This document shows positions 1-29,437 of a stretch of DNA of 64,000 nt, one piece after another. The notes beneath the pieces are model-generated. The model was not told the origin of the DNA. It ran no database searches and saw only the letters and a program-made list of their open reading frames with translations. The first letter of the stretch is position 1. Every line of letters starts with the position of its first letter. The DNA comes from Balamuthia mandrillaris. Lineage: Eukaryota. A program made the position numbers and the translations under genes. The DNA lies in NCBI GenBank assembly GCA_031835245.2, contig JAVKOQ020000032.1, positions 1 through 64,000 on the forward strand, in the 5' to 3' direction.

Positions 1-3000
1 CCCGTTGGTTGCACCACCACCGCACTTTAGGGTTTTTATTTTGTTTGTTTGTTTGTTAGTTTGTTTGTTTGTTGGTAGCATTTCGTTGGTTGGTTGGTTT
101 GCATTGTAACTTAAGGCTCATATGTTTCCAGTTGCTGCTATTGGTAGCCCAGAGGCCGAAGCTGAGATCCTCAGCAAATTTAACCCCAGCAATCATGCGT
201 TCTTTTTAACCCTTTATCTCTCTTTTCTCTTTTCCTTTTGTCCATCATTGTTATTATGGTTATTGCTGTTGGGGTTATTGGTTTATTTTTTTTGTTTCCT
301 TGTGAGTAACTGAGCCTCTGTGTTTTTCTTTCTACCTACCAACCAACCAACCAACCAACCAACCAACCAACCAACCAACCAACCAACCAACCAACCAACC
401 AACCAACCAGACTCATGGAGAGTACATCTCAGGATAGGTGTCTTGAGCGGTAACACTCGCTTAGCCACACTGCAAGCCTTGCTAAAGGCAAAGCAAGCAG
501 CAGTCAATGCAGCAGCAGCGGCGGCAGCAAGTTCAGCATCGCTATCCCCTGCTGCTGCTGCTGCTGCTTCACTTGGCCTACCTTCATCATCGCAAGAGAG
601 CCCCATGCCTTCTGGTGGGACCATCAACAGCATTCTCTTCACTCCTCCTTCTACTCCACTGAGAACCACAGCTATTGTAGCTGCCTCGCCTACTAGCCCC
701 CCCTCTGCCTCTTCATCAGCTGCTGCTGCTGCTGCTGCTGCTGCCTCTTCTCCTCAGCAAAGGGTGGCAGCAAAGTTGTCGGACAGCGATCTTAACGCGG
801 TGTATCGTTCGGCTAGCGATGTAGTACGGCGTTATCAGCTCGCCGATGAGAACGGCGCATGGTTATCGCCACTTATGCCCATCTACGGTCGATATTTCAA
901 CATTATTCATCTACTGTCACTGCCGGTGCATCAGATTGTGTCCATGGTGGAAGACCCCAACACCAAAGTGAAGCCCCGAGAATGGTCATTTGCAGACACG
1001 TTGCTGAAACTGGCCAATGCCGTGCAACTATCAAAAACTGAGTATGTTCTTCTTTTTATTTATTTGTTTGTTTGTTTGTTTGTTTGTTTGTTTGTTTGTT
1101 TGTTTGTTTTTATATGGCCCTTGGTTATCTGACCTAACTACCTCTCAACTTACTGCTATGTGTATGTGTTGTGTTGTTGCATTGTCAGTGCAATGGATCA
1201 GATTCAAAGCAACAGGGCCTTGAAAGTGGCGCTTGCTGCTGCAGAACATATTTTCGATGAGGCCAAATCAAAGAAAAGCCTACCTCCACGGGAGACGCTC
1301 CCCTATTTTGTGCTCACCAAACAGGATTTGCCAGCAGCTCATGCGAAATCCTTTACACTCAACGCTTTTAGACAAGATCTCTCCCTGGTGGAGCATATGT
1401 CCATCGACGTTATTTCCCAACTGGCAGCAGAGAACCGGGGTCTCATTTCGAAAACCGACTTTCGTCTGCTGCACCCCTTGGCTCCAGCCATCCAGAAGCA
1501 GTTGGTGTTTTATTATTACATTCCCATGGTGGTCAGCCCTCCATCTGAAGTAAATACAGAGCTAAGCAAAACCTTTCTGAGGTTTTGTAGACGCAAGGTC
1601 CGTTTATCATTATCTGTTTGTTTGTTTGTTTGTTTGGTTGGTTGGTTGGTTGGTTGATTGTTTCAATTGGTGGGTGGGTGGGTGGAAGGAAAGTGCTAAC
1701 TCTCGCTTACTTTGGGTGGCTGCAGGCCCAAAACGAGGGAATCATCCAGGAATTGGGTGATATCGTGGCCAATGGCTTACGCTGCCATGGCAGCATCGTT
1801 GAAGGACCCTGGATCGTCAACGGTCTGGAAAATCCACGGTGGAAGTGGCTGGCGCAATCCATTCGCAAGGGTCATTGGGACGTGCTGCATCAGGCCGCTC
1901 TTGGTCTTGACCGTGGCAAAGAAGTCTTGCCGATGGATCCATCGCAACAACAACAACCGTTGGATGCGACTTCCTCCCAGTCCAGCAGCAGCAGCAGCAG
2001 CAGGTTTTATGAGACACCAACTGGAAGTTGGATCCGTAACCTCATTAACGCTGCAGTGTATAGCATTCTGAAGGAGATGCCCTCCTCGGATGAACGGCGC
2101 AACCGCAAAGGACGCGTTTTTCAGGGTTCCTTCACCCGGGAAGAACTGTTGTTAGTATATAGACAACTCCCTCTCGGCCTGCAGAAACTTTTCATGTTAT
2201 TACGGGCCAAAACTATCCAGTATGTTGCTCCTCTTTCGCTTGGTTGCTTGCTTGCTTGCAATGCAAGACATGTTATCCTTGCCACCTCTCTATATTCCCT
2301 TTGCCTGTTTACTCACTCGCTCGCCTCCTTGCTTGCTTGCTTGCTCATAGTGATAGCGCAACACACGAGGAGAATACCCGTTTGCCACCGCTGCGCCAAG
2401 AATGGTTGAACGAGTCATCTTTGGCAGATGCTCTAATGTCAGCTACCCCCTCAAAGCCAACAACGAGCAGCCATCGAACCAAAGTGCAACAAAAGGCGAT
2501 ATTAGCAGGAGGGGAAGAGGAGGAGGAAGAAGAAGAGGAAGAAGGTGAAGAGCAACAACAACAAGAAGAAGAAGCGGCAGTGATGGAGGAAGATCCAGAA
2601 GCCTTCTTATATCCCCCATTGGACGGCCAGCAATTAGAGCAAGCAGCCCGAACGGAAGCGATGGTAGAGAAACAGCATTCCGCCAAGGAAAAGTTGTTCC
2701 AATACCGTATGAAGCTAATCCATTATTGTCCTCCCTTTACGGTGCAAGAAGCCTTGGCAGAGAACGCGTTGAACTTTGCCAGTCTGAAATCCTTGAAAGG
2801 CATGCGCATTTCTACCAGCATCAACCTTTCTGGACCTTTGGAGGATGTCAAGCGGTTGATGCTTGCTGTTCGTCGCTGCTTGGTGAAGGAAGCGCAACAA
2901 CATAATACTCCGCTGGAGTTGGATCCTTTGGATAGAAAGCTCTGGAAGACACGCATTCGTCATCCGGTTCGTTCTCAGCTGGAGCGAGTGTGGCCGCACA

Positions 3001-3393
3001 TCACACTGGAAAAATCCAGCAAACCTGAGCGACGGCGAAGCAAAAGCAAAAGCAAAAGCAGCAGCAGCAGCAGCAGCAGCAGCAAAAGCAAGAACAAGAG
3101 TAAAGCTAGCAGCAGCTCTGCTACCACTAAAGTGCCTGCAGACCAGTTATACAATGCAGCTGCTATTGTGCATGTAAAGGACTTGCCTGAGCTGGATGCT
3201 ATATCACCACTCGCGGCTGATTGGTAAGTTGTTTGTTTATTTGTTTGTTTGTTTGTTTCATAGGAAAGGAACAATTCACCACTCTCTACCAACCTCCTCC
3301 CATTTACTCGCTTTTTAACTTTTTGTCTTTCTTTCTCTCTCTTTTTCTCTTTCTTTCTCTCTCTTTATTTCTCTCTCTTTATTTCTCTCTCTT

Positions 3394-3431
<38 letters not shown>

Positions 3432-5173
3432 TCTCTCTCTCTCTTTCTCTTTCTCTTTCTGTCATTCTCCAGGGATTTACAATATGTGGATCAATTGGAT
3501 AACAAAACATGGCAGCCTATCCATACCACCTCTACCCAAGTCGGCAATACAGAAATGAAGAGGGAGAAGCATCGTGCCAAACGCCATTCTGTTAGGCACC
3601 AAAAAGCCATGGACAAGCTGGCTCAGAAGAGCAGTGAGCTGCAGCAAGACATCTCTGTCGATGCCAGCCCCTGTATAGACTTGACAGAGTTTTTTGGGCC
3701 TGACCTTCGCTCTTTTGCTGCTGTAGACCAGAGTAGTTTGGATGATGCGGAGTTTAATCTCGATGATGGCAGTATCCTGGGTGGTGGTGGTGGTGGTGGT
3801 GGTGGTGGTGGAAGTGGTAGTGGAAATGCTACCTCAGCTGGTGTGTTCGTAGACACAATGGACCTAGCAGCAACAGCAGAAACAGCGCAGCAACAACCAA
3901 GCTCAACAAAGCGCCCAAGAGCTATGTCCTCTTCTGCCTCTTCCTCTCCTGTGACAAGCAAGAAGCCACGGAAAGCGGATGATGATCAACTGTTGTTGGA
4001 AAAAAAGAAAAAAAAGCAACAACAGAAGCAGAAACAGAAGGACAAGGAGAAGCAGAAGCAGAAGCAGAAGCAACAGCAGAAAAAGAAGAAGAAGGAGAAA
4101 GAGAAGGAGAAGGAGAAGCAGAAGCAGAAGCAGAAGCAAAAGCAACAACAGAAAAAGAAAGAGAAGGAGAAGGAGAAGGAACAGGAGAAGGAGAAGCAGA
4201 AACAACAGCAGAAAAAGAAACAAAAGAAGACTGCCACCGAGTCAGAGGAGTCCGAAGCCTCATCCGCATCAGAGGCATCAGATAAGTCGGAGGAGTTTGA
4301 GGCCTCATCTGAGTCAGAGGCATCAGATAAGTCAGTGGAGTCAGGCAAGTCAGAGGAAGAGGAGGAAGAGGAGGAAGAGAAGGAGGAGGAGGAGGAGGAA
4401 GAACCCAAGAAGACAGAGAAGCTTGCAACTTCCACCAAGTCTACTGCTCCTAGCATCAGCAGTAACAGCAGCAGCAGCAGCAGCTCCTCAGATGATGATG
4501 ATGATGAGATTGCCAGTCTCATGAGCCTTGATATCACTAATGTAGCAGGTAAGAGGCGCTCACGTTTGGTGTTACTTACAACAACTCACATATGCACTAA
4601 CCACACTTGCTGGCATGCATGTATACATGCATGCATGCAGATACACGTGATGGTGCTGGAGATAGCAAAACAAAGTCAGATATTCCCAACCAGACAGCTC
4701 CTTCAACAGCTGCGATGGTGGATAAAGATATTGATGATTCCATACTGAGTGTTGGAATGTATGTATTTTTATTTCATTTGTCCATTCGAGTTTGGTTCTC
4801 TATCTGTCCGTCTGTCTGTCCATCTGTCCGTCAGTTTTTCTACTAGCTTTGTGTTTTGTCTCTCTTTTGTTGGTTTACTCGTTTTCTGTTTGTTTGTTTG
4901 TTTGTTTGTTTGTTTGTTTGTTTGTTTGTTTGTTTGTCCTCTTCCTCGTGGTGTTTTTTTTTTGGGCTTTTCAGTTGCAATTCTATGCTTATACAGTGGC
5001 GCTCCGTCGGAGCGGCAGCTTTTTAACTCCAGTTTTGTTCTTATTATTATTTGTATTTCTTGTTGGTTGTCTTTTTGGTGTTGATTGTTTAGCGCTCCAG
5101 CGGAGCGCTATCTTTTTGGAGTTTGTTTGCACTGTTATGCCTTTGTGATTTCTCATTCAAGCCTTACTGATTT

Positions 5174-5205
<32 letters not shown>

Positions 5206-5631
5206 CTAGTATCAAAAAAACCTGCTAATGGCCCAGAGAAACAAGCAGCAGCAGCAGCAGCACAAAATGAAGAAGAGGAGGAGGAGGAAGAAGAACAAGA
5301 AGAAGAAGAAGAAGAAGAAGAAGAAGAAGAAGAAGAAGAAAAAGAAAAAGAAAAAGAAGAAGAAAAAGAAAAAGAAGAACCAAAAGCAGCAGAAGCAGAA
5401 GCTGGCGAAAAAGAAGCAGAAAAACAGAAAGAAGAGGAAAACACAAGTGCTACTAAGAGCCCTAGCAGCAAATCTACGCGCAAGGCTGCAGCTGCTGCTC
5501 AAAAGGCTATTGCTACTGCTGCTGCCAAGTCATCTTTGCAAAGAGCTGCTGCTGCCGTGGCTGCCTCATCTAGCAGTAGCAGCAGAAAAGGAGCCACAAC
5601 TCGTTCACAACGCCGTAACTCAGGCAGGTGA
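1..5631 (+). pseudogene. Large multi-exon gene of the YR element (ParB-like motif; K/E/S-rich C-terminus), 5' end outside the window
   Basis: Phase-consistent GT-AG exons: <1-31, 116-~198, 411-1041, 1189-1597, 1726-2219, 2357-3223, 3473-4548, 4641-~4758, 5210-5631 (TGA). The ~198/411 junction phase is unresolved. A 5-bp deletion at ~4748 relative to copy B (TAGAC) shifts the frame before the last exon. Confidence 0.6.
338..408 (+). repeat. (ACCA)n microsatellite in intron
   Basis: Directly visible tandem tetramer. Similar (GTTT)n, (CT)n and (ATCT)n tracts fill most introns in the window. Confidence 0.95.
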
Positions 5632-5696
5632 TCTCTTCCTCTTTTTCGTTATATTAGTTTGGTTGTTTGAGAGAAAGCTTGAGTTAGTTGATTGGT

Positions 5697-7322
5697 ACAA
5701 CGACAACAACAACTACAACAACAATCATTAGAAAGGACGACCTCTTCTTCTTCTTCTTTTTCTTCTTCTTCTGCTTTTTCTTCTTCTTCTTCTTCTTCTT
5801 GTTCTCCTTCTTCTCCTCCTCCTTCTTCTTCTTCTTCTCTCCCTTCTTCTCCTCCTTCTTCTTCTTCTTCTTCATCTTCTTCATCTTCTTCTTCTTCTTC
5901 TTTGTGTTCTTCTTCTTCTTCTTCTTCTTCTTCTTCTTCTTCTTTTTCTTTTTCTTCTTCTTCTGCTTTTTCTTCTTCTTCTTCTTCTTCAAATTCAGAG
6001 TCCTTTGTCTTTGAGAACAATGATGGTGATGTTATGGATAGCGGTGATGACAGTAATTTATCATCATCATCATCATCATCATCATCCTCATTAAGAGGAA
6101 GAAGAGGAGGAGTAGAAACAGATATAGATGCAACAAGCAAAACAACAACTCCACCAACATTGATAGATTTGTTGTTGTTAACTGAAGACGAAGAAGAAGA
6201 TGAAGAAGAACAAAAAGAAGAAAAACAAGGAAAAAAGAGAAAAATAGAGAAACAACAAAATAGAGCTAGAACAAAGGATGATACTGATGACGATACTACA
6301 CATGATAGCAGTAGTAGTAATGGTGGTGGTGATGGTGGAGGAAGACGTCTTTCTCGTGCTATCACATTGATGAACCGTTTGACAGAAGAGCGGTGGACAG
6401 AGTTGACGGCAGTGACGAGTCGATGGAGCCCTTCTACCCAACGTAAACATGCCTGGACTTTGGCCATCTGGGAAGCACATTGTGGGCATCATAAATGTTT
6501 GCCAGCTCTTCCTTTGAATCTCCAACGTCATAACGTAGGAGCCTTTGTTCAATGGTTGATTTTGGATGTGGGTTATGCCTTGAGCTCTGTGCGCGATGTC
6601 ATGATTGCCAGTCTTTATCGTTTGCATGATGAAAGTATCCAACAACAGCTTGACTCCCTTTCTGCATCCTCCTCCTTCTCCTCTTCCTCCTCCTCCTCCT
6701 CCTCCTCCTCTGTTTCCTCCATGATCTCTTCGTCTCCAGCATCATCATCACCTACCACTTCTCCTCCTCCTTCTCCTTTATGCAGAACCATTCTTGGTGA
6801 TGGTGTCACTTGAGCAGCCACAACAGGAGCGACAGGACGCACTACAGCATTGACGGCAACCTCAGACCATGCTTACTTGTTGTTGCTAAAAAACCAAATG
6901 GATGCCATCAAAGATCAAGTCAAACAGGCCATTCGGCATTGCAAAAGAGCCAAACCCTCCTGTTCTAGCAAACAATTGTGCAAAGACGCATGTTTGTTAG
7001 ATGATGTCTTACATATCATCGCATCCACTCCAGATGGACTGGTGAGCAAAGCTGGTGAAGCCAGTTGTTGGTTACACAGTGTTTGTACTGGTGCCAGAGC
7101 CATTACAGCTGCAAACATTCGTTTGGGTGATATTGTGGCATTTCGACCTAAACTTTCATCCTCCTCTTCCAACAACAACAACAATGGCAACCTCAGCTGC
7201 CATCACCAAGAGGATGCATTTTCTGCTCCTCCTCTTTATTTCCTTTCGTTGCGCCAACAAGTCACCAAAGGAATACCAAATCATTGGAATCATGTCGTTA
7301 CATTTGAAGGTTATTTAACACC

Positions 7323-7354
<32 letters not shown>

Positions 7355-8347
7355 TATCATCACGAGGATCATCTTCTTCACCATCACCATCATCATTATC
7401 ATCACCACTTAGCACCGTCACTGCTACGACCTCCGCTGCCGCCGCTGCCACCACCGCCGCCGCCACATCAACAACATCAACACCAAGCATTTGTCTTGGA
7501 GATTTTATTTACTGGTTAAACAAGCATCTGTTATGCAAGCATGGTTTGGATTTGCGCGAGTTTCACAACTGGCGCTTAACGGATGCACAAAAACAAACAT
7601 CATTATGGGGATGGTCACGCGATACTTTAAATGCCAAGTTGCAAGATCGGGCTGTTCGGGCTGGTTATCCTGAAGGATTGTTTTCCTTTCACTCCTTGCG
7701 TGCTGGCTTCCTTTGCACTGCCTTGATCTTGGAGGGACTGCAGGAAGGTCACAGTCAGAACAATGTACTGGATACTACTGCCCTTATCGCAGGTTGGGTA
7801 CCTCGTGGTAGATCCCAGCAAGTCTACGTCAAGGATACATTAAAACGTGCTATTGTGGCCAATCGCTTGGTCAGCAATGTTACTACTCATCCTCATTCTT
7901 CTTCTTCTTCTTCTTCTTCTTCTTCTTCTTCGTCATCTTCATCCTCTGTTGCAACTACCACTGCTGATTATCATCCTCCTCGACATTGCGGTTCGTTACT
8001 GCTCATCTGATTTTTGTTTTTTCTTTTGTTTTTTCTTTGGCTGGGCTGGCTGCCTGACCAGCGTCAATAAACCACTACCACCATCACCACCACCATCACC
8101 ACTACCACTTGATGGACTGACTTGCTCTCTTTTTGGTTCTTTTCATCCTCACTCCCTTGCATGCATACAGTTATTGCGCCAGAGCTAGTTACCAAAGAAG
8201 CATTTCACAATCTATCCCCAGATGCTTTGCAACAATCCAACTGGTCTGCAGATACCAACTATCAGAGTTTTATTCATGCTGTTCGCCAACGGTTTGTTTG
8301 TGTGTTGTTTGTTTGTTTTGTTTGCATAGTATCCACCACCATCACCA

Positions 8348-8403
<56 letters not shown>

Positions 8404-9581
8404 TTATTTATCTATCCAGTCAGTCATGGCTTGTTTGTTTGCTTGCTTGCTTGCATTCAAAAATGCACCCTTAGACCTAGCGCTCAGCTAGAACGCACAG
8501 GTTTATTGTGGCAGCAGCAACATTCATAGTCTAAACAATAATTGTTATGATTGGTCTTGGTTCATTTGTTCTTCTTTTGGCATTCACTCACACTTTGTTT
8601 TTTGTCTCTTTTCCCTTTTTCTTTCTTTCCCTCTTTCTTTCTCTCGCTTTCTCTTTCTCTTTCTCTTGTTCTTTCTTTCTTTCTCGCTTTCTCTTTCTTC
8701 GTTTACACTGCTTCTTTAGGTGGTTCATGAAACAAACAGATTTGCCAACCAAAGATCAACAAATACGATTTTATCGCTCCTTGTGGCTTGAATGTTGTAC
8801 CGCTTGGGTAGAAAATCATCCAGATGAGTTTGATAAGGATGTGCTAGCTGAAGCTGCAGCCACCTATAAGGCCAAAAACAAATCCCCTCTTCGTTGGCCC
8901 AATATTCATCGCCAGCTGTGCCGTCAACACATCTCTGGCATTCTACAAAGCTTTTTCAGTGGCTTGAATGAGCTGGTGGATGAGTTTGTAGCTCCTATAC
9001 TTCCCAAGTTGGTCAATGGATCGCCCATTCACAAAGCATTCCTCACCCCTCGTCAAGAGCAATCATCTTCCTCACTTGCTTCTCTCGACAATGACAATGA
9101 CAAGAGTCCTGACTCAAAAAAACAAACACCACGACGACAACAACTTCGCAGAGCACTTCAGCGACAACAATTGTTATCCAGTCGACTCAAATATCGGAAG
9201 AATGGCCATCAGCAACGAATCGCTTGGCAGGCACCAGAAATCCGTAGACTTGTCACTTGGTGCTTGCGTGATGAATGGTCTTGGTTGGAGATTGCCAAAC
9301 ACTTGCCTACCCAACGTCGAACCAACAATGATTGCTATGATAAATGGCGCAATCTCCTCACAGAATTCTCCAACAATCTGGACGCTTTGAAGGCCAAATA
9401 CTTGGTGGCCCACGATGAGGACTTTGACAAATCGGATGATGATGATAATGACAACACTTCCTCCCCATCATCATCTCCTACTTCTACTACCACTACAGTT
9501 ATATCCATCTTGGATGAAGAGGAAGAGACAGAGGAGAATGATGATGATGATGATGATGATATTATGATTATATCTTGTTAG
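5697..9581 (+). pseudogene. Tyrosine recombinase-Myb fusion, copy A (one in-frame TGA at 6811; 5' part deleted)
   Basis: N-terminal core-binding-like segment WSPSTQRKHAWTLAIWEAHC. Catalytic set: TGAR (R), VTKG (K), HSLRAGF (HxxR), AGW, QQVY (Y). Introns 7991-8170 and 8292-8719 are phase-consistent. C-terminal Myb W-x-W-x-DKWRNL at 9225-9359. Confidence 0.8.
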
Positions 9582-9731
9582 ATTATATAGTCATTCCTAT
9601 ACAAAAATTGAAAAAATTGCTACTTTGACCCACTTTATCCGTTAGACTTATAGACTTAGAGTTTTATAGAATGGACCATGGGGAGTTGAATGCCGTAGGT
9701 TCTGAGTACCCGCCCCTAACCCTACCAAAGT

Positions 9732-11939
9732 GTGGAAGAACATATCAAGCACCTTATCTGTGTTATCCTCACTCTCACTGCTGCGGGACTCCATATCTGT
9801 CGGGAGAAGTGTCAGTTCGGGTACAAACGCCTCTGCATCCTCGGTTTTATCATTGATTGCAGCAATATCCTTCCTGACCAATGCAAGCTCTCCACTTTCG
9901 CACTCCTAGAAGTACCATCCACTGGCAAGCAAATGCAATCCTTCCTTGGCTTTGCAGGCTACCTCTGCGACTTCATCCCCATGTTCGCCCAACTTGTTCG
10001 GCCCCTTGACGCCCTCCGGTACATCAAGGACGTCCGTCCCCATTGGAACCAAGACTGCCAGGACGCCTTTGACGCCCTCAAGCGCATCTTATCCAACCCA
10101 CCTGTGCTCTCTCTCTATGACCCATCCTTACCTCTTTTGGTTGGCACTGATGCCTCCCAATTCGGTGTTGGCGCCGTCCTTTACCAGATCGGACCCAACA
10201 ACAAGCACCAGTACATCATGTTTGCAAGCAAGGCCCTCAACCCTGCCCAACACAACTATCCTGCCACCAAACGTGAGATGCTCGCCATTCTCTTTGCCGT
10301 CCGCTCCTTCAGCGATTGGCTCTATGGCAACAAGTTCACGATCTATTCTGATCACAAGGCTTTGTCCTACCTCTTCACTTCTAACAGTAAGAACTACACC
10401 CTCAACTATTGGGCTCTCCTCATCTCAGAGTACAACTTCAAGATCATCCACCACCCTGGCGTTCACATGATTCTTGAGGACTGCCTCTCTCGGCTGTACC
10501 CGCGCTCCTTCTGGGACAACGGTGGTCTTACACCCCCCTCCATCCCTCTGGACGCCCCTTGCTTGCCTCAGCGCAAACCTCGTGACCTCAAGGCTCTTGC
10601 TTTGGTTGACAACTCCCCATCCACAGCCAAATCCGCTCTTAACAGGCACATCAAGGGCAGACTCAACAAGCAACTCCCTTCCACCTCTGAACGAAAACGC
10701 CTCCTGCAGCTGTTCCACACAGAAGGACATCACGGAGCAGAAACCTTGTTCATCAAGATCTGGAATGAAGGCTATTATTGGCCTACTCTTCGTGCTGACT
10801 GTTCCCGCACTTGCCTACAGTGCAACGACTGCCTTAAGCACAACGTCACCAAACACGGCTTTCATCCCCTCAAAACCATCCACGCTACTTACCCCTTTGA
10901 TCACGTCGCCATTGATCTGTTTGGTCCCCTTCCCACTTCTTCCAAAGGCTTCAACTACGTTCTGGTCACCACAGACATCGCTACCCGGTTCACTTCCCTC
11001 CGCCCAGTCCACGCCAAGACTGCCAAAGATGTGGCCCGCACCCTCTATCAAGTCATCTCTGATTTCGGTCTCCCTAAGATCCTTCAGTCAGACAACGGCA
11101 CTGAGTTCGTCAACGCGGTCATCAAAGCTCTCAAGACACTCTCTGGCTTTGAGCATCAGTTCATCTCAGCCTATCATCCTCGAGCTAACAGAGCTGCAGA
11201 AAGCCATGTCAAGCTGGCCTGCAACACCCTTAACAAGCTCATTAACAGTGATTGGTCTCACTGGCACACCTTTCTTCCTGCTGCCCAATATGCAATCAAC
11301 CAACGCGTTACTCATCGCCACAAGTCTTCCCCTTTCCAACTGTTCTTTGGTCGCCCAGCTACCACTCCACAAGACTATTCTTCTTCCTCTTCCCAGCTTC
11401 CTACCGAAACCCTCCTCTTGGAGAACGCCAAGCAAATGCATGATATTGTCTACCCAGCATCAGCATCTTCTACTCGGAAGCACAGTTCTAACATCAAGGC
11501 TCAACATGATTCTTCTAAGCCACTCCGCGAATTTTCCGCTGGCTCCAAAGTCATGCTACGCAAGCCTCCCAGGTCTCCCAAGTCTCTTCCTGAATACTCT
11601 GGCCCTTATACAGTCATCCGCTGCAATCGTGGTGGTGCATACCTCCTCCAGGATAGCACTGGCGTTACCCTCCCGGACAAGTTCAGCCCCAACCAGCTGA
11701 AGCTCATTGCCCCCCCAGAGGACTCTACTACCAATGACCTCCCACCCGATGAGTATGAAATAGACGAAATCCTTGATCACAAAGGCCCAGCCAATAAGCG
11801 TGAATACTTTGTTCACTGGAAAGGCTACCCACATTCTGATAACCAATGGATCCCTGCTAAAGATGTCCATGCTCCCAAACTCGTCAAACGTTATTGGGAC
11901 CTCCTCAAACAATCCTCTTCACCTTCTACTTCTTCTTAA
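9732..11939 (+). CDS. pol: Gypsy Pol fragment: RT C-terminus, RNase H, integrase, chromodomain
   Basis: EEHIKHL..EKCQFG; RNase H TDASQFGVGAVL / YSDHKAL; HHCC zinc finger; integrase IDLFGP, SDNGTEF; chromodomain YEIDEILDHK..YFVHWKGY. Confidence 0.93.
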   Translation: MEEHIKHLICVILTLTAAGLHICREKCQFGYKRLCILGFIIDCSNILPDQCKLSTFALLEVPSTGKQMQSFLGFAGYLCDFIPMFAQLVRPLDALRYIKDVRPHWNQDCQDAFDALKRILSNPPVLSLYDPSLPLLVGTDASQFGVGAVLYQIGPNNKHQYIMFASKALNPAQHNYPATKREMLAILFAVRSFSDWLYGNKFTIYSDHKALSYLFTSNSKNYTLNYWALLISEYNFKIIHHPGVHMILEDCLSRLYPRSFWDNGGLTPPSIPLDAPCLPQRKPRDLKALALVDNSPSTAKSALNRHIKGRLNKQLPSTSERKRLLQLFHTEGHHGAETLFIKIWNEGYYWPTLRADCSRTCLQCNDCLKHNVTKHGFHPLKTIHATYPFDHVAIDLFGPLPTSSKGFNYVLVTTDIATRFTSLRPVHAKTAKDVARTLYQVISDFGLPKILQSDNGTEFVNAVIKALKTLSGFEHQFISAYHPRANRAAESHVKLACNTLNKLINSDWSHWHTFLPAAQYAINQRVTHRHKSSPFQLFFGRPATTPQDYSSSSSQLPTETLLLENAKQMHDIVYPASASSTRKHSSNIKAQHDSSKPLREFSAGSKVMLRKPPRSPKSLPEYSGPYTVIRCNRGGAYLLQDSTGVTLPDKFSPNQLKLIAPPEDSTTNDLPPDEYEIDEILDHKGPANKREYFVHWKGYPHSDNQWIPAKDVHAPKLVKRYWDLLKQSSSPSTSS

Positions 11940-11950
11940 GAGGGGGAGTA

Positions 11951-12185
11951 TGTTGGTAAAATCACCAACACTTATCTCAAGACTCCTCATGTTGGATCCG
12001 TCCCGGACCCTCAGCTCTCCTTTCTTTTGTATCCTCCATCCTTCCCTTCTCCCTTTTCCCTTTTCTCTCGGTGTACTTTGAAGCAACATCGGAGATTCAC
12101 TCCCGTTGTCCTTCCTCTATTCTCTTGAATACACTTCTTGTCTCATCACCGACTCTTTTATTCTTGAGGTTGGATTCAACCAACA
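11951..12185 (+). repeat. 3' LTR of Gypsy family 1 (235 bp)
   Basis: Begins TGTTGGT just after the PPT and ends ACCAACA (7-bp terminal inverted repeat). The sequence after it resumes the (CT)n intron of the YR-element gene. Only one LTR is present, so it cannot be cross-checked. Confidence 0.8.
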
Positions 12186-12208
12186 TTTCTCTCTCTCTCT
12201 CTCTCTTT

Positions 12209-12241
<33 letters not shown>

Positions 12242-12256
12242 TCTGTCATTCTCCAG

Positions 12257-14235
12257 GGATTTACAATATGTGGATCAATTGGATAACAAAACATGGCAGC
12301 CTATCCATACCACCTCTACCCAAGTCGGCAATACAGAAATGAAGAGGGAGAAGCATCGTGCCAAACGCCATTCTGTTAGGCACCAAAAAGCCATGGACAA
12401 GCTGGCTCAGAAGAGCAGTGAGCTGCAGCAAGACATCTCTGTCGATGCCAGCCCTTGTATAGACTTGACAGAGTTTTTTGGGCCTGACCTTCGCTCTTAT
12501 GCTGCTGTAGACCAGAGTAGTTTGGATGATGCGGAGTTTAGTCTTGATGATGGCAGTATCCTGGGTGGTGGTGGTGGTGGTGGTGGTGGTGGTAGTGGTA
12601 GTGGAAATGCTACCTCAGCTGGTGTGTTCGTAGACACAATGGACCTAGCAGCAACAGCAGAAACAGCGCAGCAAAAACCAAGCTCAACAAAGCGCCCAAG
12701 AGCTATGTCCTCCTCTGCCTCTTCCTCTCCTGTGACAAGCAAGAAGCCACGGAAAGCAGATGATGATCAACTGTTGTTGGAAAAAAAGAAAAAAAAGCAA
12801 CAGCAGAAGCAGAAACAGAAGGACAAGGAGAAGCAGAAGCAGAAGCAACAGCAGAAGAAAAAGAAGAAGGAGAAGGAGAAGGAGAAGGAGAAGCAGAAGC
12901 AGAAGCAACAGCAGAAAAAGAAACAGAAGGAGAAGGAGAAGGAACAGGAGAAGGAGAAGCAGAACCAACAGCAGAAAAAGAAACAAAAGAAGACTGCCAC
13001 CGAGTCAGAGGAGTCCGAAGCCTCATCCGCATCAGAGGCATCAGATAAGTCGGAGGAGTTTGAGGCCTCATCCGAGTCAGAGGCATCAGATAAGTCAGTG
13101 AAGTCAGGCAAGTCAGATGAAGAGGAGGAAGAGGAGGAGGAAGAACCCAAGAAGACAGAGAAGCTTGCAACTTCCACCAAGTCTACTGCTCCTAGCATCA
13201 GCAGTAACAGCAGCAGCAGCAGGCTCCTCATCTTACAACAACTCACATATGCACTAACCACACTTGCCATGCATGCATGCATGCATGCAGATACACGTGA
13301 TGGTGCTGGAGATAGCAAAACAAAGTCAGATATTCCCAACCAGACAGCTCCTTCAACAGCTGCAATGGTGGATAAAGATATTGATGATTCCATACTGATA
13401 GACGTGTTGGAATGTATGTATTTTTATTTCATTTGTCCATTCAAGTTTGGTTCTCTATCTGTCCGTCTGTCTGTCCATCCGTCCGTCAGTTTTTCTACTA
13501 GCTTTGTGTTTTGTCTCTCTTTTGTTGGTTTACTCGTTTTCTGTTTGTTTGTTTGTTTGTTTGTTTGTTTGTTTGTTTGTTTGTTTGTTTGTTTGTCCTC
13601 TTCCTCGTGGTGTTTTTTTTTTGGGCTTTTCAGTTGCAATTCTATGCTTATGCAGTGGCGCTCTGTCAGAGCGGCAGCTTTTTAACTCCAGTTTTGTTCT
13701 TATTATTATTTGTATTTTTTGTTGGTTGTCTTTTTGGTGTTGATTGTTTAGTGCTCCAGCAGAGTGCTATCTTTTTGGAGTTTGTTTGCACTGTTATGCC
13801 TTTGTGATTTCTCATTCAAGCCTTACTGATTTTTGTTGTTGTTGTTGTTGTTGTTGTTCTAGTATCAAAAAAACCTGCTAATGGCCCAGAGAAACAAGCA
13901 GCAGCAGCAGCACAAAATGAAGAAGAGGAGGAAAAAGAAGAAGAAGAAGAAGAAGAAGAAGAAAAAGAAAAAAAAAAAAAGAACCAAAAGCAGCAAAAGC
14001 AGAAGCTGGTGAAAAAGAAGCAGAAAAACAGAAAGAAGAGGAAAAGACAAGTACTACTAAGAGCCCTAGCAGCAAATCTATGCACAAGGCTGCAGCTGCT
14101 GCTCAAAAGGCTATTGCTACTGCTGCTGCCAAATCATCTTTGCAAAGAGCTGCTGCTGCCGTGGCTGCCTCATTTAGCAGTAGCAGCAGAAAAGGAGCCA
14201 CAACTCGTTCACAACGCCGTAACTTAGGCAGGTGA
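12257..14235 (+). pseudogene. 3' exons of the large YR-element gene, copy B
   Basis: Matches 3473-5631. An ~85-bp deletion near 13230 removes the splice donor equivalent to 4549. Confidence 0.75.
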
Positions 14236-14638
14236 TCTCTTTCTCTTTTTAGTTATATTAGTTTGGTTGTTTGAGAGAAAGCTTGAGTTAGTTGATTGGT
14301 TGGTTGGTTGGTGGTAATAATACTGGTTAAACAATGGATGGATGGATGGATGGATGGATGGATGGATGGATAGATGGATGGATGGTAGAACAGTGATGGT
14401 GGTGGTGGCAGTGATGGTGATGGTAAGAGTTGTTAAGCATAGCATGGTGAATAAGGGAGTGAGTGACATGACAAATAAGCAAAAACAGTAGTATTGTTGC
14501 AAATAATAATACTAATAGAAAGACAACAAGAAATGTAAACAAACAAAGAATGAAAAGGCAATTATAAAAATGAACCTCCTGCTACTGCCAGATGTAAAAA
14601 GGAAAGAAAGAAAGAAAAAAAGAAAGAAAGAAAGAAAA

Positions 14639-14673
<35 letters not shown>

Positions 14674-15072
14674 GAAAGAAAGAAAGAAATGATCAAGAAT
14701 GGAAAGGAGAGGAAAAACAAAAACAAGTCTCCAAATAGTTCTCATTATTTATTATTATCTATATCTTCATTCATCCAGACTAGACCTACTAACTTCTTGT
14801 TTCTTTTGTTTCCATTTGTTGTTTGTGTTTGTGTTTGTGTCTACAATTTGCTTGTTTAACAACAACAACAAACAGAAGATAATATATCTATTCCTGCTGT
14901 CTTTGACCAACCACCACCACTAAACAACAACAACAACAAAGAGGTAGCAATAGCAATAGCAGCAGCAACAGAAGAGGATGATAAAGTAACAATTGTCTCA
15001 ATTTCATCATCCTCATCCTCATCAGCAACATCTTTCAATCATCACTTTGCTCCCTATCAGGCTCTCAACACT

Positions 15073-15463
15073 TGTTGGCAACTGCCAACATAACCAACTC
15101 TTTCTTCATTTCTTTCTTCATTTCTTTTCTCTTTTCTGTCAACAATCTCACATCAGCTATCATCAATCTTTTATGTTGACACCAAGCCATTCCAAAGATC
15201 TTTCTCCTGCCTTCCCTGGAACTTTCCCGAGCCTAGAACTTAAGAACAAAGAAACCAAGAAGTCACTCCCCAACCCCGAGCCCCTTTCCTTCCTTGGTTG
15301 CCTTCTCAACTATAAATACTTTTCCCACAACCAAGAACAGACAGATGAATGAACAAAGAAACAAGACACTCACAAACACACTTGTTTTCTTCCTCTCATT
15401 AAATACATTTGGCTCCCATCTTTCTCTTGGTTCCTGTCTTGGTTCTATGCTCAGGTTCTAACA
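15073..15463 (+). repeat. 5' LTR of Gypsy family 2
   Basis: Direct repeat of 20481-20871; TGTT...AACA ends; TATAAAT inside. Confidence 0.96.
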
Positions 15464-15493
15464 TTTTTTTTTGACAAGTCAAACCATTTGGTG

Positions 15494-18400
15494 ATGGAAG
15501 CTTTGCAACAGACACAACAGCAACAGCCGCAAAGCATGGCAACGGGAAACACAAATCAACTGCCTACTTCCGCTGGTGGTTTGTCATCCATAGATTCTCG
15601 GCAAACAACCGCACAACAAATCTTGGCACTTCTGCAGCAGCAACAACAGCAACTGCAGCAGCAACAAATACAACTGCAATCTCTCCTTCAACAGCAATCT
15701 CTTGCTTCTTCAGCACCGGCTGCTTCTTTGTCATCTTCAGCTGCCTCAGGTATAGGTGGTTCGGCTTCTTCTATGCTGCAAACAGTGACTCCTTCTGATT
15801 CAACCAGTGCTGCTTGACCACGGCCAAATCCTTTGGGCTTCAACGCTGATCCGTACTCAGCTCTTTGGTTGCAACAAGAACAACTGCAGGCCCGGATTCT
15901 GGACCCTTCTGTTAATGTGGACACCCTTCAGCAAGAATTAGATGACTTGACTGCGTGTTTTGCTCTTGTAAAGAGAACTTCTGAACTGCGTATTCCTGGC
16001 CAAGATCCACAGACTTCTTCTGACAATTCTCCCGCTGTGCCTCAACTCCAGCGACACATCCTCCCTGTCTCCAAAACGGCTGCAACATTGTCCACCTCAA
16101 TGGTGCTTCCTCAGTCATTCCAAGTCCGACCTGCTTCCGCTTCTTCATCCCTGTCTCCCTCTTCTTCTTCATCATCTGCAACTATTCCCCCTTTGCCTCG
16201 CCGACTGCCCGAATTCAATCCTGCAAAGCACAACACCGTCTCCTTCCTTGAGCGCTTCAAAATGATCCTTGACGTCCATCATTACCCGCCAGATCTTTGG
16301 TACCTTGCTCTCATCTCTCAAATCACTGATCCCGATGCCTTCCACTGGGCAAAGCAAACTTTGGCTTCCGACATGACCTGGGAAGACATTCATGCTGAGT
16401 TTTTGGATCACTTTACATCTCCTGAGTACGAATCCAAGCTTCAGGATGAGTACCACAGTTTCAAGGCCAAACCTGGTGAGACTGTTCGAGCTATTGGTGA
16501 TCATCTTCATTCCCTTCGTGACCAGATGGTGAACAAGCTGTCTACTCCCGTGTTGTTGCACAAGTTTCGGTTGGCCCTTCCTAAGGACATTTGATGAATT
16601 TACATTGGTACTGTCCTCTCAAAGGCTCCTCACTCCTTGGATGAAGTGATCAACATCGCCCTGGTGATTGAAAGCGACCTCTGGGACCCTGATCAGACGA
16701 CTCCTACTGATGATGGTAGCAAAAAGAAGAAGCAACGACCTTACTGTAAGGTCCACAAGATGTTTGGACATAATACATCCGACTGTCATGTGCTTCAACA
16801 CAGGAAACAGCCCAATGGTTCGGGTAACACCTCTTCATCATCATCTAGTACTTCTTCTTCTCCTTCTGGTGCCTCCTCTTCTGGACCATCCCCAGCAACA
16901 AAGTCCAAGAGCCACATTACATGCTACAACTGCAACCAGAAAGGCCATTACTCCAATGAGTGCCTGCTCCCTAAGAAGAAGCCACCAGCTTTGCTCAACT
17001 CTCTTGATGACTCGACTCCTTCCCCTCCTGCGCAACCCTCTGGCAATTCCCTGTCTGCTCTTCATACCGATGATTCATATGAGGAATACAATCATGCTAT
17101 CAACAAGCTCCAAGCTGATTCTCTTTTTCAGCTTGACGCCAACAACGATGACTCTTCTTTTGACAAAATCTGTGTGCCTGCCTTGATTAACAACCATCTG
17201 GTATCCGCCTTTCTTGATACTGGCGCTTCTCGCTTGTTTATTGACTTGGAGACTGCTAAGAAGTTCCACGTCTGATTTCATCTGTTGAAATCTTCCATGA
17301 CCCTTGGCGCTAACAACTCGGTAGCAGAAGTTCACAGCGTAGCCCTCTCTGTTCTGGTCACATGTGGAAAGCTTTGTTTCCATCATCACTTCTGCATCCT
17401 TTTGCTCTCTCAGAGTGAAACAGTCATTTTCGGCCGCGACATGCTGAAGAAATTGGGCCTTGAAATTAGTGGTATTCCCATCAATTTCCCTTCTGCTTCT
17501 CCTTCACCTCCTGATGATTCCAATGTCACGACTCCCAAGCAATATCATGAGAAGTCTCTTCCTCCATCCAAGCAGCAACATATCATCAATGCTATTCAAG
17601 ACCTCTTGGATGTTAACCAACAGCTTCCAGTTGGGCCTTCTTCTCCTCTTCATCAAGCTGTTTTGCATCTCAATATGAATAATCATCGACCCATATTCCA
17701 ACACCAGTACCCCCTTCCTCACGCCTACCACGCTGCTGTTGATGAGCAAATTGAATCCTGGGCCAAGCACCAAGTCATCATTCCTGCCCTGGATGATTGC
17801 CCTTGGAACAGTCCCATCCTAGCTGTTCCCAAAAAGGATGCCTCTGGTCAACTTACTGCAGTACACGTTTGTATTGACCCTCGAGCTATCAATTCTGTTT
17901 TAGTGGATGACATCTACCCTATTCCCCCCATCCTTGACATTGTGGAACGTGTTGCTGGTTTCTTTGTGGCTTCTTTGTTAGATCTTATTTGGTCCTTCAA
18001 CTAAATCCTTGTTGCCCCTGAAGACCAGCCCAAACTTACCTTCACTTGGAAAGGCAAGCGTTGGATGTTCTGTGGTGCTTCTTTTGGCATCAAGACAGTT
18101 CCCTCATGTATGCAGCGTCTGATGACCGTCATTCTCAATAAACTATGCAATTGTTCTGCCCACTACATTGATGATTGTCTAGTGCACACCAAGTCATCTT
18201 CTTCTCTTGATGATCATATCTGTGATCTTCATGCTGTTATTTCTGCTCTCAACAACACGCGCCTTCATCTTTGAACCGAGAAATGTCATTTTGGCTTCAC
18301 GCAGATCAGGCTTGTTGGATTCATTGTTTCCTCCACCAGCTTTGCCCCTGATTGGGACAAATTGTCTGCACTTTGCTCCTTTCCTACTCCTACTACTGGA

Positions 18401-20480
18401 AAGCAGTTGCAATCCTTCCTCGGTTTTGCCAACTTTCTACGGCCTTTCATCCCTCGTTTTGCATGCCTTATGGCTCCTCTTGACGCTCTTCGATATGTCC
18501 ATGATCTCTGACCCTTCTGGACTGCTGATTGTCAAGCTTCTATTGATGCTCTTTGTTGCATCCTCAGTTCGCCTCCTGTCTTGAGCATTCCTGCTCCTGA
18601 TCTCCCTTTTCTTGTTGGAACTGATGCCTCCCAGAATGGTGTTGGTGCTGTTCTCTACCAAGAGACCCCGGACAAGCAACATCGCTACATTGCCTTTGCT
18701 AGCCGTGCACTCAACGATGCCCAGTGCAACTATCCGGCTATGAAACGTGAGCTTCTTGCCGTTGTCTTTGCTCTTCTGCAATTTCAGTGCTGGCTTTATG
18801 GTTGCTGCTTTACCCTTTTCACTGATCACAAGGCTCTCACTTATCTCTTCACTTCCAAGCACTCCAATTATATGCTTAACAACTGGGCCTACATCATCCT
18901 TGAGTACAACTTCGATGTTGTCCATCATCCTGGAATCAAAATGATCCTTGAAGACTGCCTCTCTCGACTCTATCCAAAGAATTTTTGGGAAGAGGATGGT
19001 TCAGCTGGTCTAACCAGGCCGATAATCCCTCAATCTGCAAAAACTCTGACTCCTAAGACCTCCTCATCTTCATCTTCTGCCTTGTCTGCACCTGAGTCAT
19101 CTTCCCTCTCATCTCTTTTTCAGATTGAGCTTGATCAGTTTCCTCCTTCTTCTCTGTCAAAGGATCTTTCTGCCTTTATCAAGACTTTCCACGATAAGAC
19201 TGCCCCCTCATTGGAACAACAACAAGAACTTCTTCAAAAGTTTCACTCTGAAACTCATGAAGGTGCCTCCCATATCTTCAATTGAATTTGGAATGAAGGA
19301 TACTTCTGGCCTTCTCTCTGCTCTGACTGTCACTTTGTCACGTGCTCTTGTGATGCTTGCCGACGCTTCAATGTGGCTAAACATGGCTTTCATCCTTTGA
19401 AGACCATTGCTGCTACTTATCCATTTGACCACATTGCTATCAACCTCTTTGGCCCTCTTCCTTCTGACAAACATGGCTTTTCCTATGTGATGGTACTAGT
19501 TGATATGGCCACTCGCTTCACTCTTCTTCAACCTCTCTCTAACAAAAGCGCTCTTGCCACTGCTCAAGTTCTATACCAGTTTATCTGCAATTTTGGTTTT
19601 CCCAAAATCATTCAATCAGATAATGGTACAGAGTTTGCCAATGCTGTATTGACCGCTTTCAAGAACCTAGCTGGATTTGACCATCATTTCATCTCCTCGT
19701 ATCATCCCTGAGCTAACAGTGCTGCTGAGAGTCACGTTAAACTAGCCAAATCTCTTCTCTTCAAACTTCTCAACAGTGACTGGTCCTCCTGGTCTACAGA
19801 AAGGTATCAACAATTGCTACACCTCTCGTCATTGTTCCTCTCCCTTCGAGCTCTTCTTCGGTCGTCCCTCAAACCCGCCAGACAACTTTTCTTCTTCTAC
19901 CTCTTCACCGCTCTCCCCTGAAGAACGTCAAAAGCAGATTATTGACCTTCGCTCTCTTGTTTGGCCTTCTGCTGCCTCCGCCACTGAAGAATATAATGAC
20001 AAGATTGCTGACTCATTCAACAAGAAAGCTCCTCTTGTTTCCTTTGCTCCTGGTGACACTGTAATGCTTGTAAACTCTGGTGCTAACGCCAAAACTGATC
20101 CCAAGTACCTTGGTCCTTTCTGAGTCATTGAACGTACCTGTCACGGTGCTTACCGCCTAGAAGATCTCACCAGTCAACCTGTTCCTGATACGGTTCCACC
20201 TTCCCTCTTGAAGAAAGTTGATCCACCAAAGCCGCTTTCTTCCCCTTCCTCTTCTTTGGACTCCGCTGATCCTGCTTTGAAACGCTATGAGGTTCACTTC
20301 ATCGTTAATCATCATGGTTCTGCCCGCAACCGTGAGTATCTAGTCCGCTGGAAAGGCTACAGCCCTGGAGGTGACTCCTGGGAACCTCCAAGTCACTTCA
20401 ACGACCCCCGCACTATTGACAATTATTGGAAACATATGCGTAAGAAAGGTAAAATCGCCTCTTCACGGAGGAGGAAGTGA
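15494..20480 (+). pseudogene. gag-pol: Single-frame gag-pol with many nonsense codons and one frameshift (~19790)
   Basis: ORF pieces 15488-19711 share one frame. Zinc knuckles CKVHKMFGHNTSDC and CYNCNQKGHYSNEC; protease LDTGAS; RT PWNSP, YIDD; RNase H TDASQNGVGAVL; integrase SDNGTEF; chromodomain YLVRWKGY. Confidence 0.93.
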
Positions 20481-20871
20481 TGTTGGCAACTGCCAACATA
20501 ACCAACTCTTTCTTCGTTTCTTTCTTCGTTTCTTTTCTCTTTTCTGTCGACAATCTCACGTCAGCTATCATCGATCTTTTATGTCGACACCAAGCCATTC
20601 TGAAGATCTTTCTCCTGCCTTCCCTGGAACTTTCCCGAGCCTAGAACTTAAGAACAAAGAAACCAAGAAGTCACTCCCCAACCCTGAGCCCCTTTCCTTC
20701 CTTGGTTGCCTTCTCAACTATAAATACTTTTCCCACAACCAAGAACAGACAAACAAATGAACGAAGAAACAACACACTCACAAACACACTTGTTTTCTTC
20801 CTCTCATTAAATACGTTTGGCTCCCGTCTTTCTCTTGGTTCCTGTCTTGGTTCTATGCTCAGGTTCTAACA
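20481..20871 (+). repeat. 3' LTR of Gypsy family 2
   Basis: Direct repeat of 15073-15463. Confidence 0.96.
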
Positions 20872-20875
20872 CACT

Positions 20876-22726
20876 CAGTCATTCATTCACCAAGCAGTTT
20901 TTGGATCATTATTTGTTAAAAACACCACCACCAGCTACTGTTGTTGCTTCTGCTCCTGTTATTGTTGTTGATAATCCTGCAGAGCTCTTTTCACCTCCTC
21001 TGTTTTCTGCATCACCCTTTTCATCCACTACTACCACCATTACTCCCACTTCATCATTTACTCAATCACAACCACAACAACTACAACGACAACAACAACT
21101 ACAACAACAATCGTTAGAAAGGACGACCTCTTCTTCTTCTTCTTTTTCTTCTTCTTCTGCTTTTTCTTCTTCTTCTTCTTCTTCTTCTTCTTCTTGTTCT
21201 CCTTCTTCTCCTCCTCCTTCTTCTTCTTCTTCTCTCCCTTCTTCTCCTCCTTCTTCTTCTTCTTCTTCATCTTCTTCATCTTCTTCTTTTTCTTCTTCTT
21301 CTTTGTGTTCTTCTTCTTCTTCTTCTTCTTCTTCTTCTTCTTCTTCTTCTTTTTCTTCTTTTTCTTCTTCTTCTGCTTTTTCTTCTTCTTCTTCTTCTTC
21401 TTCAAATTCAGAGTTCTTTGTCTTTGAGAACAATGATGGTGATGTTATGGATAGTGGTGATGACAGTAATTTATCATCATCATTATCATCATCCTCATTA
21501 AGAGGAAGAAGAGGAGGAGTAGAAACAGATATAGATGCAACAAGCAAAACAACAGCTCCACCAACATTGATAGATTTGTTGTTGTTAACTGAAGATGAAG
21601 AAGAAGATGAAGAAGAACACAAAGAAGAAAAACAAGGAAAAAAGAGAAAAATAGAGAAACAACAAAATAGAGCTAGAACAAATGATGATACTGATGACGA
21701 TACTACACATGACAGCAGTAGAAGTAATGGCGGTGGTGATGGTGGAGGAAGACGTCTTTCTCGTGCTATCACATTGATGAACCGTTTGATAGAAGAGCGG
21801 TGGACAGAGTTGAAGGCAGTGACGAGTCGATGGAGCCCTTCTACCCAACGTAAACATGCCTGGACTTTGACCATCTGGGAAGCACATTGTGCGCATCATA
21901 AATGTTTGCCAGCTCTTCCTTTGAATCTCCAACGTCATAACATAGGAGCCTTTGTTCAATGGTTGATTTTGGATGTGGGTTATGCCTTGAGCTCTGTGCG
22001 TGATGTCATGATTGCCAGTCTTTATCATTTGCATGATGAAAGTATCCAACAACAGCTTGACTCCCTTTCTGCATCCTCCTCCTTCTCCTCTTCCTCCTCC
22101 TCCTCCTCCTCTGTTTCCTCCATGATCTCTTCGTCTCCAGCATCATCATCACCTACCACTTCTCCTCCTCCTTCTCCTTTATCCAGAACCATTCTTGGTG
22201 ATGGTGTTGCTCGAGCAGCCACAACAGCAGCGACAGGACGCACTACAGCATTGACAGCAACCTCAGACCATGCTTACTTGTTGTTGCTAAAAAACCAAAT
22301 GGATGCCATCAAAGATCAAGTCAAACAGGCCATTCGGCATTGCAAAAGAGCCAAACCCTCCTGTTCTAGCAAACAATTGTGCAAAGACGCATGTTTGTTA
22401 GATGATGTCTTACATATCATCACATCCACTCCAGATGGACTGGTGAGCAAAGCTGGTGAAGCCAGTTGTTGGTTACACAGTGTTTGTACTGGTGCCAGAG
22501 CCATTACAGCTGCAAACATTCGTTTGGGTGATATTGTGGCATTTCGACCTAAACTTTCATCCTCCTCTTCCAACAACAACAACAACAATGGCAACCTCAG
22601 CTGCCATCACCAAGAGGATGCATTTTCTGCTCCTCCTCTTTATTTCCTTTCGTTGCGCCAACAAGTCACCAAAGGAATACCAAATCATTGGAATCATGTC
22701 GTTACATTTGAAGGTTATTTAACACC

Positions 22727-22760
<34 letters not shown>

Positions 22761-24961: not shown

Positions 24962-25100
24962 ATTATATAGTCATTCCTATACAAAAATTGAAAAAATTGC
25001 TACTTTGACCCACTTTATCCGTTAGACTTATAGACTTAGAGTTTTATAGAATGGACCATGGGGAGTTGAATGCCGTAGGTTCTGAGTACCCGCCCCTAAC

Positions 25101-28800: not shown

Positions 28801-28803
28801 AAA

Positions 28804-28828
28804 CCCTAACCCTTAACTCTAATCCTAA
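28804..28828 (+). repeat. Degenerate telomere-like repeats CCCTAA-CCCTTAA-CTCTAA-TCCTAA
   Basis: Four tandem near-CCCTAA units directly after the non-LTR element 3' end. Confidence 0.55.
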
Positions 28829-29437
28829 CATTATATTATAAAACTTAATTCTAAGCTCAAAATCAAGCATAGAACACTAAACTTAATTTATTTTAAAGTG
28901 AAAAGCACAAGTGATGTGTTAAAAAGGGTGAATAACATGAATGGATGGAGTCAAAATATATTATTCAAAGAGGAAACAAGGGCACAAAGAGTGTTAAGAG
29001 GGAAAAGTATGGTGTGAATGAAACAAAACTAACTAATTAAAAGAAAGGGAAGGAAACAACAGAATAAAAGGAAGAAGTCTAGTGATGTGGGAGCAGGCAA
29101 TTGGTGTGTGTCACAAATGGCAATAAATAGGAAAGGAAAGAAAAGGTGCAATGGAACTAATATGTTGAGAGTAATATTTTGTGTTTTATTGTAAGTTGTT
29201 TTGAGAGAAAAAGAAGAAAAAGCAAGGAGGGATAGTAGTTAAACTAGAAGAATTATCTGAAAAGAAAAGCAGAGAATATTAGCATAAAATGGCAAAGAGG
29301 AAAAAGGAGAATTTGGACATCAAGAGGTTTCCTTAAATTGATAAGCAAGAAGGAGAGGTTGACAGGAAGAGAAGACGAGTACTAAGTCATTGGCCTAAGG
29401 CAAGGCTAAAGTATCATTAATAAAGCAAGTTTTATTA

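Follow-up and report, generated by a model that had tools for sequence, protein, structure and literature searches.

Two copies of a recombinase-Myb gene unit

The left part of a 64,000-nt stretch of Balamuthia mandrillaris DNA (the window; all coordinates are positions of this stretch on the forward strand) carries two adjacent copies, A and B, of a gene unit. The last gene of each encodes a tyrosine recombinase (YR) fused to a C-terminal Myb domain, a large partner gene lies upstream, and the right end is a fixed motif followed by short telomere repeats (Table 1). Self-comparison of the window pairs 3406-4490 with 12188-13230 (94% identity), 4575-5696 with 13232-14300 (92%) and 5696-9720 with 21082-25100 (96%); at aligned bases the copies are ~98% identical. 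Between the partner gene and the YR gene, ~985 bp present in B are missing from A, and B also holds a 5.8-kb gypsy insertion there. The 3966 ungapped columns of the YR unit differ at 73 positions; 61 of the changes are transitions and 42 are of CpG type, a pattern that methylated, decaying repeats would be expected to show.

The full R-K-HxxR-W-Y set reported in the original prediction, made from the sequence of the window, is present in both copies. In the spliced protein of A, counted from the ATG at 6034, the six residues are R355, K412, H553, R556, W588 and Y598, with HSLRAGF starting at nt 7690; B is likewise complete. Where at least two spliceosomal introns had been proposed, each copy has three GT-AG introns (7991-8170, 8292-8474 and 8501-8739 in A, with equivalents in B), backed by the gene models of the relatives P0004 and P0005 rather than by RNA. 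The spliced reading frame of ~980 codons contains the motifs TGARA, VTKG, HSLRAG, AGW and QVYVK, then the three-Trp Myb repeat (W864, W881/883, W904), whose assignment is confirmed by a match to Pfam PF13921 at 24.1 bits (cut-off 22.9). The Pfam scan did not recognize the YR domain of the window, and single-sequence searches of the window exons against the PDB returned no significant match. Both genes are broken, A by one in-frame stop at codon 260 (nt 6811) and B by three, at codons 521, 828 and 835.

In both copies the partner gene runs collinear with the YR gene, and it is multi-copy in Balamuthia; its match P0041, in effect the window's own gene, was excluded from this support. Searches with it found no credible Pfam family, no relative outside Balamuthia and no Atlas match above 0.82, and its exons matched no viral family. 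We infer that it is cargo of the window's subfamily. The proposal of a multi-gene element of at least 9.7 kb holds in so far as both copies link a multi-copy partner gene to the YR gene; it applies to the window's subfamily only, and no left end was found. Metagenomic relatives of the recombinase, among those with a size listed, lie mostly on contigs of 2.4-7.5 kb. Copies of the partner gene bear the names VASt domain and carbonic anhydrase, which are probably wrong.

The right end of the element

Where does the element stop? As predicted, homology between A and B ceases 139 bp past the stop codon in both copies and unrelated sequence lies beyond, in each case a 5'-truncated transposon. The shared end sequence closes with GTACCCGCCCCTAAC, and the repeat tail of A extends to 9724. 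That this end is a telomere repeat had not been noticed. The Balamuthia telomere is reported to be TTAGGG, and the transposons of this amoeba are described in the same source as still awaiting thorough annotation (bioRxiv 10.1101/2025.02.25.640156). The boundary heptamer CCCTAAC occurs three times in the window, at the two element ends and in the degenerate tract at 28802-28829; with a chance expectation of 4.3 the count is uninformative, and it is the positions that are informative.

Contigs of three runs from three studies, one run possibly being the source of the window, and one RNA run were compared with 8721-10100. Contigs diverge from the window at 9721, 9722 and 9724 into differing flanks (X1, seven contigs, agreement 0.53; X7, four; X3, record 14). 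If the position listed for each contig is read as its last base in agreement, the tail after the fixed motif amounts to ~1-3 CCCTAA repeats in different registers. The uninterrupted gypsy, joined in frame at 9725, is present in all three runs; the tail of A is therefore CCCTAACCCTA. At the junction the intact gypsy target reads CCCAAA, one mismatch from the repeat, against a background of 2.7% in gypsy DNA and 1.3% in host DNA in this post hoc comparison.

Proteins of a second Balamuthia subfamily carry the same end. After the Myb domain the mis-annotated P0017 and P0018 read ...RVPAPNPNPN and ...RVLAPNPNPK; the window terminus in that frame gives VPAPNP, and PNPN is what CCTAAC repeats translate to. 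P0017 runs on into a host Ras/RapGAP gene without its start, the Ras domain missing the first 74 positions of the profile, and P0024 into a DEAD domain that begins at position 92; P0003/P0025 and P0028 likewise pass from Myb into partial host or element genes. Because the contigs leave the end into several unrelated flanks and second-subfamily proteins read through the same motif and repeats, the two units are not a plain duplication. A segmental duplication of just two copies without a common boundary had been named as the alternative; instead, copies are numerous and share a discrete right boundary.

Near the end of the element, over its last ~80 bp (9641-9732), contigs of the three runs show a several-fold increase in depth. 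Depth there is no copy number, and the peak hints at non-autonomous or other-subfamily elements with the same terminus. In RNA run X21, of which ~3% was read, a few reads fell on the terminus and 13 were placed in total. The terminal 17-mer was found at 11 loci in metagenome contigs, none of them with a telomere-repeat tail or YR homology, and these were dismissed as chance matches. A terminal hairpin was rejected, and inverted telomeric arms, suggested by codons guessed from the peptide LGLRV, are not claimed.

A large recombinase family

The nearest proteins to those of the window are from B. mandrillaris itself, at 93-97% identity. We recognize ~25 named Balamuthia YR-Myb proteins or fragments, some of which may be redundant haplotype records, in three subfamilies: the window type (P0004, P0005, P0007), a 17-member P0003 cluster with P0026 and P0028, and P0002/P0008. 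P0016 and P0008 are 49% identical, and the window protein is 46-61% identical to both in local segments. In a profile search of 1.84 billion representatives (clusters at 50% identity), 816 clusters matched at E<=1e-10, of which 283 reached E<=1e-30. Named hosts other than Balamuthia are Blattamonas nauphoetae and Monocercomonoides exilis (five proteins, P0083 cluster), so that oxymonads are included; among 10 representatives looked up, only that of M. exilis carried an organism name.

From the best 150 profile matches, 144 new sequences were aligned with 11 earlier ones. Across these 155 the catalytic residues are invariant wherever present (R 147/147, K 151/151, H 145/145, R 146/146, W 139/139, Y 138/138). 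Moreover, a Myb helix follows in 96 of the 98 sequences that include the catalytic Tyr and run on for 230 residues or more. That this is a real family of mobile YR-Myb elements we regard as very likely.

A first structural model built from four sequences was poor (predicted local distance difference test score, pLDDT, 52) and was replaced by a model of P0016 from 121 sequences (pLDDT 87.4, predicted template modelling score 0.79). The latter, as predicted, shows a core-binding plus catalytic YR fold with Cre closest: Cre heads both the Foldseek ranking (E 1.1e-6) and that of VIA-align (Z 15.5, root-mean-square deviation 3.8, 287 aligned), in the second about tied with XerA (Z 14.5). Between the YR and the Myb lies a helical domain (P0016 442-550) that is well predicted and conserved in the family. 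An RNase III/Dicer-like identity for it was considered and is not claimed, the best Z of 7.5 being within the range of a common helical arrangement.

Three partly overlapping sets of proteins (11, 24 and 38) were scanned with Pfam; the matches were to Myb and, weakly, to phage integrase, with no GCR1_C, DUF3504, NDC10_II, DUF3435 or reverse transcriptase (RT). Atlas neighbours are distant YR clusters only, sharing 125-140 of 256 features. No relative was found in prokaryotic genomes and GenBank phages or, in four scans, among IMG/VR viral contigs, where a weak locus with a 24-residue match (L012) failed the family profile; structure matches in viruses are generic integrases. In one metagenomic relative of 2064 residues, P0149, a ubiquitin C-terminal hydrolase domain lies at the N-terminus and a second YR-like domain at the C-terminus.

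The Myb domain and the telobox motif

The telobox consensus is given as VxxKDxxR (PMC6175992). Among 101 Myb domains of the family, 21 have the strict motif, 32 have KDxxR and 53 have DxxR. Both other Balamuthia subfamilies (P0016, P0002) match the strict form, and the Myb of most relatives in the Balamuthia genome is of telobox type, a point absent from the original prediction. The Myb of P0016 scores 19.5-19.7 bits with TRF2 chains versus 9-16 bits for each repeat in five listed alignments to multi-repeat Mybs. The family resembles TRF1/TRF2 in having a single C-terminal Myb, with the VxxKDxxR motif in the members counted above. It differs in that the domain is fused to a recombinase, in that the Pfam scans gave no TRFH match, and in that the motif is altered in the window copies.

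On a midpoint-rooted FastTree phylogeny of 92 cores, the motif is scattered over many branches and absent from one large clade. The tree holds family members only, 9 of the 101 having been dropped for short cores, and is read without support values. This distribution suggests that, as far as sequence can tell, the telobox is an old trait that has been lost repeatedly.

Proposed integration at telomere repeats

What would such an element do? The reading we favour, with moderate confidence, is that A and B are decayed copies of a multi-copy, Crypton-like YR-Myb DNA element that integrates at telomere repeats. Telomere repeats are proposed as the target because the terminus is fixed and the CCCTAA tail varies, and also on account of the orientation and the telobox. 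The YR would cut the element out as a circle and reinsert it by strand exchange, by analogy to Cryptons as they are described in PMC3212892, and the Myb is predicted to guide the element by binding duplex TTAGGG. Targets could be telomere tracts, chromosome ends that have just healed, or short seeds resembling telomere sequence, and we propose that the short tails and the adjacent truncated genes and transposons arise because insertions survive only near the inner edge of a tract. The left 28.8 kb of the window appears to be a mobile-element pile with telomere-type remnants, oriented as a left chromosome end; it would be a present or former end, built up outward.

In the blast fungus, telomere-inserted MoTeRs are reported to be stable with two or fewer repeats toward the chromosome, and broken ends to be healed on 1-4-base seeds (PMC7367193). 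The position of our element distal to CCCTAA and its tail length match those telomere-inserted MoTeRs. By analogy, the short tails beside truncated genes may reflect the same stability filter.

Several observations weigh against integration at telomere repeats. Within the window, telomere repeats are seen at the right end only, the left end not having been found, and among 17 of 95 loose-contig-end rows none shows a long telomere tract beside the element. No exact telomere repeat is found in the intact gypsy target, and the junction of A is one base off the register for simple telomerase healing, for which reasons the healed-end step is an assumption. The terminus has no clear inverted arms of 11-13 bp and folds no better than shuffles. 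Furthermore, the strict telobox motif is failed by 80 of the 101 family members, and the window copies read NxxYDxxR, off the consensus. Whole-domain scores separate TRF from c-Myb weakly, and the family profile gives similar scores to c-Myb repeats and to TRF domains. Genomic DNA context is known for the Balamuthia members only, and in the portion of the RNA run that was read, zero reads lie over 8721-9594.

The element might instead carry the telomere repeats itself, as a Myb-bound arm of its own recombination site, and insert near-arbitrarily at internal positions. We consider this unlikely. It would suit the inexact gypsy target and the junction off the telomerase register, the several flanks that are middles of genes or transposons, and the copies that sit on contigs of more than 500 kb; a fixed site should, however, give a fixed end, whereas the tails vary in length and register, and the layout of the window ends at a degenerate telomere tract beside host genes.

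Improbable, too, is a passive subtelomeric block for which the recombinase is not responsible, moved by break-induced replication or ectopic recombination or attached as a CCCTAA-tailed RNA. A 3' CCCTAA joined to chromosome ends is the geometry described for Terminons (PMC6431247), and A and B are near-identical neighbours. Nevertheless, no Terminon/Athena 3' hammerhead at E<=1 and no other gathering-level Rfam match was found in 1-30000, the visible element has no RT, the catalytic residues are invariant family-wide, and there are three diverged subfamilies, two of which have been shown to share the terminus. Finally, that a larger endogenous DNA virus or Polinton-like element, of which we see the right end, enters telomere repeats by this YR is very improbable: the unseen left end and the nimavirus precedent, some of these viruses having intron-bearing genes according to PMC10871703, would allow it, but no relative was found in the four IMG/VR scans or in GenBank phages, the partner exons match no viral family and the viral structure matches are generic.

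Beyond the two copies, integration at telomere repeats by a YR-Myb element would make the family a widespread, undescribed superfamily of protist DNA transposons that pair a TRF-like Myb with a Cre-like YR, are telomere-site-specific, carry cargo and remodel chromosome ends, members with altered recognition helices having switched to other targets. For this wider claim we find the case evenly balanced.

Comparison with known systems

Like Cryptons, the unit is a DNA element with the YR as sole recognized enzyme; a C-terminal DNA-binding domain is described for CryptonF and an extra gene for some CryptonF and CryptonS (PMC3212892), and some CryptonV families are described as targeting microsatellites (PMC8869645). 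Where CryptonF has a GCR1_C C-terminus, the element has Myb; where most CryptonS members have TATGG termini, its right end is CCCTAAC with a variable telomere-repeat tail. Its hosts, an amoebozoan and oxymonads, are absent from Table 1 of PMC3212892. No RT or DDE transposase is present in the visible part of the element, the left end being outside view. Further marks of Cryptons are direct repeats of 4-6 bp at both termini without terminal inverted repeats, and a circular intermediate. Membership in a described Crypton family, which the original prediction had posed as the alternative, finds no support in the Pfam scans, where the proteins match no Crypton- or Starship-marking family.

Association of YRs with insertion into the host telomere repeat is described for the nimaviruses Majanivirus and Pemonivirus (PMC10871703). 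Those are viruses of 278-401 kb whose YR has C2H2 and SAM-like domains, and the word 'myb' occurs 0 times in that paper; the element here is at least 9.7 kb without viral genes seen. With MoTeR-type retrotransposons and Terminons it shares a position distal to a short telomere-repeat remnant and a piling up at ends; they are RT-based, and it has no RT in its visible part. Cre of phage P1 is the closest solved fold for ~74-412 of the modelled P0016, which differs in its 12-13% identity, its extra helical domain, its Myb and its introns.

Starships and DIRS/Ngaro elements are likewise YR-mobilized eukaryotic elements. Starships carry cargo and have a DUF3435 YR as their first gene; the element here has no DUF3435 match, and its YR gene comes last. 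DIRS/Ngaro elements contain RT and RNase H; none is seen in the visible part of the element, which does not reach its left end, the RT and RNase H matches of the window belonging to separate gypsy and non-LTR (long terminal repeat) elements. Set beside all of these, the element works like a Crypton with a nimavirus-like target, and it lacks the CryptonF, CryptonS, Starship and Terminon features tested. A YR-Myb element was not found in the literature searched, Repbase and most subscription journals lying outside that search, and the family is probably a new lineage of YR DNA transposons.

Why would this matter? Among eukaryotic mobile elements, telomere targeting is known mostly from retroelements and, for YRs, from giant crustacean viruses. 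A compact recombinase-telobox fusion, if true, would be a simple and testable route to the telomere niche. With it, the short list of eukaryotic YR elements would gain a large lineage (at least 283 clusters), and it would offer natural variation in one recognition helix for studying the evolution of target choice.

Surrounding elements and gene models

Table 1. Features of the element and of its surroundings in the window
Feature	Position	Strand	Comment
Copy A	1..9724	+	left end not found in window
Upstream partner gene	121..5631	+	multi-exon, low-complexity-rich; bounds approximate
YR-Myb gene A, large exon	6034..7990	+	core-binding and catalytic domains; start codon uncertain
Catalytic residues of A	R 7096, K 7267, H 7690, R 7699, W 7795, Y 7825	+	within large exon
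YR-Myb gene A, exon	8171..8291	+	
YR-Myb gene A, mini-exon	8475..8500	+	26 nt
YR-Myb gene A, last exon	8740..9581	+	helical domain, Myb repeat (~9210-9365), acidic tail
Right terminus of A	9582..9724	+	fixed motif ending GTACCCGCC, then telomere-repeat tail CCCTAACCCTA (9714-9724)
Copy B	12186..25100	+	starts at gypsy LTR, within microsatellite of partner-gene intron
YR-Myb gene B	21447..24961	+	3 introns, 3 in-frame stops
Right terminus of B	24962..25100	+	ends CCCTAAC
5'-truncated gypsy chromovirus-type LTR retrotransposon	9725..12185	+	outside element; RNase H, integrase, chromodomain (Pfam)
3' LTR of gypsy 9725..12185	11952-12185	+	abuts B start
Decayed full-length gypsy within B	15073..20871	+	outside element; 391-bp LTRs, CACT target duplication
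5'-truncated non-LTR retrotransposon	25101..28801	+	RT by Pfam; between B tail and degenerate telomere tract
Degenerate telomere-repeat tract	28802..28829	+	~4 units; border of transposon pile and ordinary host genes

The element accounts for a set of chimeric, mis-annotated Balamuthia gene models. The models P0017, P0024, P0028, P0003 and P0025, named RapGAP or DEAD-box helicase, are chimeras of the element with truncated neighbours.

Two gypsy elements of different families lie within or beside the element, one in the CT microsatellite of the partner-gene intron and the other with its 4-bp CACT duplication. The gypsy at 9725..12185 is cut directly after the YIDD motif of its RT and is joined there to the tail of A. 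In the non-LTR retrotransposon at 25101..28801, we take C-terminal motifs read by eye to be a CCHC and a restriction-like endonuclease. The non-LTR unit at 25101-28829 may be a MoTeR-like, telomere-targeting amoeba element inserted into the tail of B.

Host genes beyond 28829 are ODR4-like, RhoGEF, BAG and Macro, and at 35185-45238 a host reading-frame region of great length, encoding RhoGEF and PH domains, is split over several stop-to-stop frames. At the other extreme, the window starts with CCC, and its sole TTAGGG lies at position 27, ~90 bp 5' of the likely start of the partner gene; this could be near the left end of the element.

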